A stretch of DNA of 63,996 nucleotides, the filler included, from Collodictyon triciliatum (taxonomy: Eukaryota), in the NCBI GenBank assembly GCA_043381765.1. It is 7 parts of 7 records of this genome, joined end to end, with 100 filler letters (N's around TTAATTAATTAA, not from the genome) between each part and the next. Parts side by side here need not be neighbours in the genome. Positions count along the whole stretch, not along the records: positions 28,325 to 37,683 come from JBHJMP010003061.1; 6 more parts are not named here. One strand, 5' to 3'. Below, in pieces: positions 31,401 through 34,400 of this stretch; position 1 is the first letter of the stretch, and each line of letters starts with the position of its first letter. Made by a program: the position numbers and the translations under genes. The notes beneath the pieces were generated by a model. The model ran no database searches. It was given only the letters and a program-made list of their open reading frames with translations, and was not told the DNA's origin.

Positions 31401-34400
31401 CAGTTTCCTAATCAGCATCATTAAAAAAATTCAGAGTCAGAGATGGTATTGAGATTGTTTATTGTAAATTGTAAATAATTGTACATTTTGACCCCCGTAG
31501 ATATATATAGTTCCATTCATCTCTAGGCATTGATGACCGACTAGTACTTGTGGAATAGCTGACTTTCTCGTCCAATTTCCAAATGTAGGATTAAAGAAAT
31601 ACACAAAATTATCAGTGCTATGAATCTTCCCTCCAATAAGTACACTGTAAGACCCCATTGAAACCAAGCAGCTAAGAATTCTTCTTGATGGTATTTGGCC
31701 ATCAATCTGGATTTTTTTCCAAACAGAGCCAACTGTATTTTATTTTAAAAAATTAAATATTTAGAGTAAACCATAATTTATAAATTTAAAAGAAGAAAAA
31801 TACTGTGCAAAAATCATAAACATTTCGAATTCCACATTTTCGTGTTACCAGCAGATTTTGTAGCATATACATAATCCAGTGGGTGGTATAGCTGGATATC
31901 TTCCATGTTAGAAGACAAGCTACCGCCGACTAGGTATATTATTTCATTGATGACCACAGCGTTTGCATAAATTGTGGGTGGAAGTCCATGCGACAGCTCA
32001 AGTGACTCTGATGGTCGAATTTTCTGTAATTCTAAAAAGAAAATTGGGTCTCTGGGTGATTATTTTTTTAATTCTTCCTTTCAATTTTTGTGCAGGACGG
32101 TGGGTGGGTCCCTGAGTGATGAAAGTAGGCGTATTACAAGCAATTTAAAATGAAAAAGCAATTAATAAGATGTTTGTATGCCTTCAGAGCCGAAACCCAA
32201 AAATTCTGTTTCATTTGCGGTGCATTTGTTCTATTACAAGTAGTTAGTAAATTTGCGCGTGCCTACAAAAACACATCAAATTTCACCTCATCTTCCTGCG
32301 GTTGGTAATGATTCTCTGGACATGGGATGCATTCACCTCTGAAATTAATGTATCTTCCAGACTCACAAACACACCCTGAAATCCGAGCGACAAATCCTAG
32401 ATTGCAACCTGAATTTTTCAATTTAGAATTTAAAATCATAGATTTTATAAAAAAAAACTTTAAGCGGTGTGGTATTATCACCTATATTATATAGAGGTGA
32501 TAATACCACAAGCGGGATCGTTATAAAGATTAGTGAATACCGAATATTCTGACTATGAACCCGTCGCTTGGCTTAGCATTATCCTTTACTTGAAAAGAAA
32601 GATTCACGTCTCCAGAGAGTATTTCAATGACGTCTCCCATTACCAAAGTATTCAAAGAAATCTAATTGAATTGAATGGAACTGAATTAATGAAAGTTTTG
32701 TTTTATAGGATGTATAAACTTTTTGTTGGAACTAAGATACCTTATTATGGTGTGTTTCATTTTTATTCAGCAGGAATCCACTCGCACATTTTTCAGTCTG
32801 AAATAGCTCCAGACTTGCACCAGATGTTAGATTCATATAGTCGATCTATATATTAAAAAAATGAAATATTATGATAATATTCAAATAAAATAAAAAACAA
32901 CAAAGTAGAATAAAATAACAGAATATAAAATTACACACCACTATAAAATTGGTTTCTACAATCGACCATGTGCAGTTTGTTCCAGGAAAGTAAAGATATT
33001 TTCCACTTCCATCCGTGATTATTTGATCCTCGCTTGAGACTGTTTGAAATCGGCCACAAAACAGCTCAGCTGCGTTCATGAAAGGTCAGAAATTTAAATA
33101 GTATTTTTTCTTTTATAAAAATTAAAAATGGCAGAAAGAACATCATACTTATGTCCATTGAATATACACTGTTCGTGTATCCTCTTCCAACAACACCTTT
33201 ACCAACTATTCCTCCAAAGAGAAATATTTTCGCGTTTTGGATAAAATGTGTACTTTTATCTCTTGTAGGAACAATTTGATTTCCGTTCTGAATATTGCTC
33301 ATTACAGAATTATCGACTATTTGTTATATAAAAAATATAATGGAATCAATACTTACTTCTAATTAAGTGTATACTGATATAAATAAAGAATTAAAAACTT
33401 GGATTAGATAATACCATTTCCCAACCAAACAACTTTGGAATTCACTTTGCCAGAGCTTCCCAGGACAATTACATAGGTATTGTAAGATACAAAACTGTAA
33501 TCTGATACATCCAAGGGCATTGTCATAATTTTATTCCATTTCTCCTGATCTAGTAAATTAAAAAAACATTATTACATAGCAATATCACCATTTTAATCAA
33601 CACTTAAAGCTTAATTCCTTTTTGCGTAATACCTGCGATGAAGCACCATATTTCTGATTTGAGACTTGGAGAGTGACTTGAAACTCTATCATAAAAGCAA
33701 AAATTTTGCTCGACTACCATCGCCTTTGTTGTAGTTCTCAAAGGTGGAGAGTTTGTTATGTTATGATAACATTGCACTATAACCTCCTCCATATTGAAGA
33801 CAAATACATCGGGTATTGGAAAACTTTGATTCACCAAAATTCCTCCCCAAATATACATTTTGCTTCCGATGGTTGTGAAAGTGGAGTTGTATCGCAATGC
33901 AATATCATACCAGAACGTGCTGCTTATCTCAATATTCGACCATACTTTTTTTTCTAATGAAAATTTTATTTGGTAAAAATAGACTTTTTTACAAAGAATA
34001 ATAGTCATATGCTACCTAATGAATATTGCTTCAATATAGGGGTTTCGAATCCCTGTATATAACCACCGATCAAGAATAAATTTCCTTTCCAGTGCCCGAA
34101 TGCCTGAATACATGTACAAAATAAAATGGTTTGGGTTTTCGTATTCATAAATTTCGAGAAAAAATACAAGTCCAATTGTATTAAGGTTGGAATGTAAAAT
34201 ATACTGCATCTTGAACAGGTGAGGAGCAAGAGCTGTTCCCTGGATTGCACATATTCTCTTGCATAATACGCTCCCATTTAATACTATCTATTTATGATCA
34301 AAGGAATAAGCAAAATATTTTACGAATTTGTTGCTATATGATGGACACCTGTCACTTTGAATCGAATAAAGGAAAAAAAATATGATGGACACCTGTATTT

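Follow-up and report, generated by a model that had tools for sequence, protein, structure and literature searches.

A 63,996-base window of the draft genome assembly of the protist Collodictyon triciliatum contains a family of insertions, each about 20 bases plus an A tail, most of which retain flanking target-site duplications. Very probably, these inserts are tail-only copies of a poly(A) retrotransposon that lacks long terminal repeats (non-LTR), a long interspersed nuclear element (LINE), and were made by the LINE's own machinery. A first-pass annotation of the window had read them as a self-standing element of about 20 nucleotides (nt) with no partner. That reading did not survive, since the 20 bases are the terminus of a LINE with a zf-RVT domain, which the youngest copy (34353+) matches at 20/20 positions, or at 28/28 counting the tail.

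The short copies and the LINE terminus that they match

Copies of the family were sought across the window (Table 1; signs give the strand). The 18-base core of the 20-base module, with at most three mismatches, has seven matches against 0.15 expected, and none of 100 shuffles reached seven. Four of these are copies that the first-pass annotation had listed (17701-, 28038-, 30389+ and 34355+), two are diverged copies followed by A7 and A9 (20111+ and 51381+), and the last (9173+) has no A run and is not counted as a copy. A fifth listed copy, 21999+, is shortened at its 5' end and was recovered by searching with the 3' half of the motif. The claim that the motif and an A run occur at five sites, on three contigs and in both orientations, is therefore upheld (34353+, 17718-, 21999+, 28056- and 30388+), and the two diverged copies are added to it. 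A further search, for the last five bases of the module followed by A5 or more, gave seven sites in the window; five are copies already known, and the other two have neither the motif nor a convincing repeat.

The whole window was also scanned for pairs of perfect direct repeats, 12 bp or longer and no more than 120 nt apart. Of the 20 rows returned, 13 lie inside tandem arrays, and four of the seven others flank the motif, including all three of at least 16 bp; apart from these copies, the scan found no A-tailed insert flanked by such a repeat. It recovered the three copies described earlier as standing between perfect repeats of 17, 16 and 16 bp (inserts of 27, 24 and 18 nt), as well as the fourth, with its 14-bp repeat at 27979 and 28066 around an insert of 73 nt. 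The duplications differ in sequence at each site. In all three perfect copies an A run of 7-8 abuts the downstream repeat, and the nick site on the top strand reads T/ATAT, T/ATAT and T/AAAA (the slash marks the nick). The A tail abutting the repeat, the site-specific duplications of 14-17 bp and the T/A nicks (3/3) bear out the earlier recognition of target-primed reverse transcription.

The copies also form an age series. Those with perfect repeats keep the module at 20/20, 18/20 and 13/13 retained positions. In the 17718- copy the module starts 18 or 19 bases from the tail, carries one substitution and is followed by an A run (18/20 against the LINE terminus), and in the 21999+ insert two extra bases precede the final 13 of the module and an A run. 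Where the repeats have decayed, substitutions are more numerous and the tails are broken; the 28056- copy (18/20) has nine extra bases on its 5' side and an A11 that continues into a long, decayed A-rich tail. This is the pattern expected of real insertions that differ in age. Every short copy still has an AATAAA hexamer and an A run, and all are dead on arrival.

The source of the module was found by an exact search with its 20 bases. Metagenome contigs gave six loci, of which one is relevant, a contig of 1157 bases designated L002; the other five lack the preceding CAC and the A run and are chance matches. Prokaryote genomes gave seven loci, none with CAC and an A run and several of them the same bacterial coding stretch, and viral contigs gave none. 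L002, read on the minus strand, carries all 20 bases, with GC-rich sequence before them and A10 after them. Its reading frame, which is broken by one frameshift, matches the Pfam family zf-RVT (PF13966) with an E-value of 1.5e-7 and 32.4 bits against a cut-off of 27.5. The zf-RVT domain is the zinc-binding part of non-LTR reverse transcriptases. The order on the contig is the zf-RVT frame, a stop codon and a 3' untranslated region (UTR) of about 90 bases that ends in the exact module and A10. On this sequence evidence we regard L002 as the 3' end of a LINE retrotransposon, of the kind that the first-pass annotation had proposed to look for, a LINE ending in the motif.

Longer copies of the same LINE are present in the window itself. 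One, truncated by the edge of the contig that it opens, aligns with L002 at 76% identity over 185 bases (E 1e-30); the module and tail at its 3' end have decayed. The other has 70.5% identity over 156 bases (E 2e-14), also matches the family protein fragment P0140 (tblastn, E 2e-5) and keeps the first 11 bases of the module intact at 12411-12421. At 12411-12432 the first ten bases of the module are tandemly duplicated, with an additional A in the second unit, and no A tail is left; this duplication may reflect slippage at the terminus. The earlier statement that the window holds no autonomous partner is thus half right: the window lacks an intact partner, but retains two 3' pieces of the parent in decayed form. 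In an alignment of the three long copies, no change is seen in the module's first ten bases, while the dozen bases before them are variable. Upstream of the module, the short copies agree with L002 at 4-11 of 30 positions, which is chance level. Since there is no likeness to the LINE upstream of the 20 bases, the short inserts are tail-only copies.

A further copy came to light in a protein. P0133, a protein fragment of the same LINE family, carries an insertion of 14 residues that is absent from all five aligned copies (P0121, P0140, L002, P0122 and P0127). Six of the residues duplicate the EREIN stretch that comes next, and the other eight are FFSFIQFK. Translation of the window copy at 34350-34382, on its reverse complement, gives FFSFIRFK, which agrees with the P0133 insert at 7/8 residues. 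The insertion implies 42 bases, and the perfect copies in the window comprise 34-44 bases when one repeat and the insert are counted. The P0133 insertion thus appears to be a reverse-oriented tail copy with a duplication of about 17 bp, lodged in another copy of the LINE, with its exact junctions inferred from the protein. The five sister copies without it serve as empty sites at the protein level. Empty sites, which had been proposed as a check, are at that level available for this insert; none has been seen for the window's own copies. A metagenome run with a word share of 0.06, compared over 28400-36300, provided 16 small contigs, eight of them at least 99% alike; no row of the comparison had bases missing at either copy, and among the eight contig pieces listed for the run none bridges a copy, which says nothing on empty sites.

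These observations bear on whether retroposition took place at all. Nothing specific favors an artefact of adaptors or assembly, or filler DNA left by the repair of breaks, beyond the fact that the window is a fragmented draft assembly, and we give such an origin almost no credence. The motif is also a LINE terminus in an independent metagenome contig and lies inside the protein fragment P0133, so the artefact that might have undone the first-pass annotation did not materialize. Moreover, substitutions among the copies track the decay of their flanking repeats, both orientations are present and each site has a duplication of its own. Filler from repair would not bring one A-tailed motif to site after site, and templated filler of the polymerase-theta type was rejected because the same A-tailed motif recurs at unlinked sites. 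A full-length insert later deleted down to its tail was likewise rejected, as the deletions at three loci would all have had to stop precisely at the duplication.

What the rest of the parent LINE looks like can be gauged from its relatives. A full HMMER pass with the 202-residue frame of L002 against 1.84 billion representative proteins gave 14 hits. Those of the same family, cluster members included, are all fragments of at most 359 residues. The family has no close full-length relative among these representative proteins, and it seems undescribed. Four distant hits (P0129-P0132; 25-38% identity, 1226-1275 aa) have an endonuclease/exonuclease/phosphatase domain and RVT_1, and three of the four have a zf-RVT match, all below the curated cut-off. 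The L002 frame aligns to the C-terminal part of P0129 with 28% identity over 159 residues, and the top solved-structure match of P0129 is human LINE-1 ORF2p (E 3e-57). Because these distant relatives have it, a layout of endonuclease, reverse transcriptase and zinc knuckle is probably also that of the parent. In the L002 family itself the C-terminal zinc-binding part alone is observed, with the reverse transcriptase and endonuclease present in the relatives of about 30% identity and no ORF1 seen. A word-based protein search for the L002 frame among longer proteins gave no match, a search of viral contigs with P0140 found no relative, and P0142 matched no solved structure and no Pfam family.

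Clustered 5' ends and the source of the template

An intriguing feature of the copies is where they begin. Counted back from the tail, the 5' ends lie at -20 (34353), -20 or -21 (30388), -19 (28056), -18 or -19 (17718), -18 (20111), near -18 (51381) and -13 (21999), and that of the P0133 insert would lie at about -17 or -18. All eight short copies start 13-21 bases from the tail, and none starts at 22-170. If starts were spread evenly over 13-150 bases, the probability that all seven in the window would fall in a nine-base span is about 5e-9.

One explanation for the short lengths is ordinary random 5' truncation, with the clustering due to small numbers and to an assembly that loses the longer young copies. 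Truncation at the 5' end is the rule for LINEs, contig ends here fall in repeats, and the start of one contig cuts a LINE copy. The assembly would nevertheless run through copies of 22-150 bases and the same search would match them, yet none of the seven short window copies falls in that range, and the P0133 copy is short as well. We therefore consider random truncation unlikely to account for the pattern.

Another possibility is that the annotation was right in kind and that a separate RNA gene makes a transcript of about 20 nt plus a tail, which shares the terminal recognition sequence of the LINE and is mobilized in trans, as the short interspersed nuclear elements (SINEs) are. Such a micro-retroposon would suit the clustering of most 5' ends at -18 to -21, the window without a copy of 22-170 bases and the discrete duplications of 16-17 bp, a property that the excerpted account of human L1 assays in PMC11702581 ties to end-of-template insertions. 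Yet a promoter cannot fit in twenty bases, the copies have no RNA gene in their vicinity (no tRNA gene and no Rfam match at the gathering score), and the 5' ends are ragged (-13, -18, -19, -20) and not exact. Because the LINE ends in the identical sequence, its transcripts suffice as the source, and a separate gene strikes us as improbable.

We return to tail-only copying of the LINE, for which the order of steps can be inferred from what is established for L1-type elements. An endonuclease would nick the bottom strand at a T/A step in AT-rich DNA. An L1-like endonuclease exposes a T-rich primer for the A tail, and the T/A nick sites suit such an enzyme. The exposed 3' end would pair with the A tail of the RNA and prime reverse transcription, which would halt after 13-20 bases of the 3' UTR terminus. 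The top strand would then be nicked 14-17 bases downstream, and repair of the staggered cut would leave the flanking duplication.

RNA structure was rejected as the cause of the halt. The UTR of L002 folds no better than its shuffles (z 0.65), and the module alone reaches -0.3 to -0.8 kcal/mol (z 0.1-0.3); Rfam gave two matches on L002, both far under the gathering score. Since most 5' ends are concentrated at -18 to -21 and no RNA fold is predicted, the template may end there or be blocked there, and random fall-off of the enzyme fits poorly. Given tail copying, a template that ends, with the LINE RNA trimmed to the stretch shielded by a bound protein, takes a little under half of the weight, and a bound protein that halts the enzyme on a longer template takes about two fifths. 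The slight lean toward the trimmed template comes from the duplications, which have one discrete length. In human L1 assays, as excerpted from PMC11702581, discrete duplications of 12-18 bp accompany end-of-template or 5'-inverted (twin-primed) insertions, and those of truncated insertions are broader. This comparison may bear on the trimmed template as an analogy from a distant element, not as a test.

A bolder proposal, which we hold tentatively and think rather doubtful, is that the 20-base terminus with its tail is a discrete RNA species regularly made by the cell, and that recent insertions were mostly templated by this species, not by the full transcript. It could correspond to a part of the LINE RNA that is kept from decay by the protein of the element. 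If so, the LINE in effect gives rise to a micro-retroposon as long as its own target duplication, with one copy roughly every 9 kb, and the earlier idea of a micro-retroposon would be true in effect. The minimal sequence required by the LINE enzyme would also be defined, and AATAAA signals would be scattered by this route through a little-studied protist genome.

Several points weigh against the tail-copy explanation itself. The tight clustering of the 5' ends is unlike ordinary random 5' truncation, so that the simple form of the explanation leaves part of the data unexplained. The sample is small (seven window copies and one in a protein fragment), the evidence consists of DNA and protein sequence, and the window's own copies are without an observed empty site. 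Young long copies may be missing from view, as the draft assembly breaks at repeats. The parent is known from the metagenome contig L002 and not from the C. triciliatum genome; protein-level searches of the window, tblastn included, found no intact LINE. Finally, the parent's own reverse transcriptase and endonuclease domains are not on the 1157 bases of L002, whose frame has a frameshift.

Surroundings of the copies in the window

The window is made of seven pieces joined by six linkers, each consisting of 44 N, TTAATTAATTAA and another 44 N. Because the linkers separate contigs, adjoining pieces are not neighbors in the genome. Five pieces measure 9.3-9.4 kb and one about 13 kb, and the last is ended by the end of the window. 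Further stretches of N lie at 5638-6085, 56535-56931 and 58046-58754. The contig ends at the joins are mostly microsatellites (CTTCT, AAT, AAAAGA, TATGTGTTT and others); one contig starts with 19 copies of GGTTTTT (9443-9576), and a tandem array of 37 copies of the 10-base unit TCTTGCATTC, with 97% matches, occupies 36532-36903.

Base composition is about 30% G+C, with islands near 50% that contain exons of eukaryotic genes. In the gene for 5-aminolevulinate synthase, GC-rich exons alternate with AT-rich introns, and the coding stretch at 14559-16104 runs over at least two frames. The closest match of its exon, with 91% identity across 62% of the query, is a protein from the Diphylleia rotans transcriptome; alphaproteobacterial proteins come next (57-71% identity). 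On this single gene, the genome that contains the LINE copies would lie near Diphylleia, whose lineage has been little described at the genomic level. A GC-rich open frame of 156 residues on the plus strand at 37215-37683 reaches a contig end; it matches no Pfam family, does not resemble the LINE fragments and may be another repeat at which the assembly broke. Small contigs from a subsurface metagenome run, X1, are identical to 33748-33980, 34802-34952 and 34979-35129, which indicates that the organism or a very close relative was in that sample at low depth.

Table 1. Coordinates of tail copies, longer LINE copies and other features in the window
Feature	Position	Strand	Details
Youngest tail copy	34336..34396	+	Duplications 34336-34352 / 34380-34396, 17 bp, perfect; insert 34353-34379, 27 nt
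Tail copy	17679..17734	-	Duplications 17679-17694 / 17719-17734, 16 bp, perfect; insert 17695-17718, 24 nt
Shortest tail copy	21983..22032	+	Duplications 21983-21998 / 22017-22032, 16 bp, perfect; insert 21999-22016, 18 nt
Older tail copy	27979..28079	-	14-bp repeats 27979-27992 / 28066-28079; 73-nt insert; module 28038-28056
Older tail copy	30387..30412	+	Full 20-base module with two substitutions (18/20), then A6; flanking repeat decayed
Diverged tail copy	20111..20136	+	19 bases, three mismatches in the 18-base core, then A7; 5-base repeat remnant
Possible diverged tail copy, weakest member	51381..51408	+	Three core mismatches, then A9; no clear repeat
Old longer LINE copy	37784..37960	+	Last ~177 bases of the parent LINE (frame end and 3' UTR)
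Old decayed LINE copy	12047..12430	+	Last ~380 bases of the parent LINE
Faint reverse-transcriptase-like remnant, weak	12403..12677	-	tblastn with P0130/P0131, residues 540-633, E 0.001-0.002; adjoins the old decayed copy
5-Aminolevulinate synthase	14559-16973	-	GC-rich exons, AT-rich introns
6-Phosphogluconolactonase exon	13197-14114	+	Pfam Glucosamine_iso, E 5e-34
CD36-like stretch, weak	52030-52749	+	E 3.6e-5, under the curated cut-off
Linkers	9343-9442, 18784-18883, 28225-28324, 37684-37783, 47110-47209, 60265-60364

Comparison with known elements

The apparent new class of 20-nt mobile element is very probably the tail of a LINE. Copies so short escape ordinary repeat finders, and thousands may exist genome-wide, extrapolating from seven in about 62 kb. 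The sharp clustering of 5' ends some 20 bases before the tail serves as a natural read-out of the point at which the template of the enzyme ends or stalls. This clustering suggests that 20 bases and an A tail suffice for insertion, which is relevant to the LINE mechanism and to minimal retrotransposition cassettes.

Like SINEs, the window copies are non-autonomous, A-tailed, flanked by duplications and reliant on LINE enzymes. Unlike SINEs, they have neither a promoter-bearing head nor a source gene, and their sequence is the LINE's own terminus. They are not SINEs, since they have no promoter head, no tRNA-like part and no Rfam match at the gathering score. Size also sets them apart, as Platy-1 of the marmoset, about 100 bp long and called the shortest primate SINE in an excerpt of PMC4864456, is five times their length. 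In a full-text literature search that covered the main text of papers, none was found on LINE tail copies of about 20 bases or on Diphylleia retrotransposons.

The closest known thing is a 5'-truncated LINE copy. With the dead-on-arrival insertions of L1-type LINEs, the window copies share the A tail, the variable duplications of 14-17 bp, the AT-rich T/A nick and an origin from the 3' end. They differ from them in being far shorter (13-20 bases plus the tail), with starts confined to a nine-base span, and in that only the LINE's own tail is seen to be retroposed in the window, which hints that the terminal sequence is recognized and not the A tail alone. The kind of insertion is thus a known one, and it is the distribution of lengths that is unusual.

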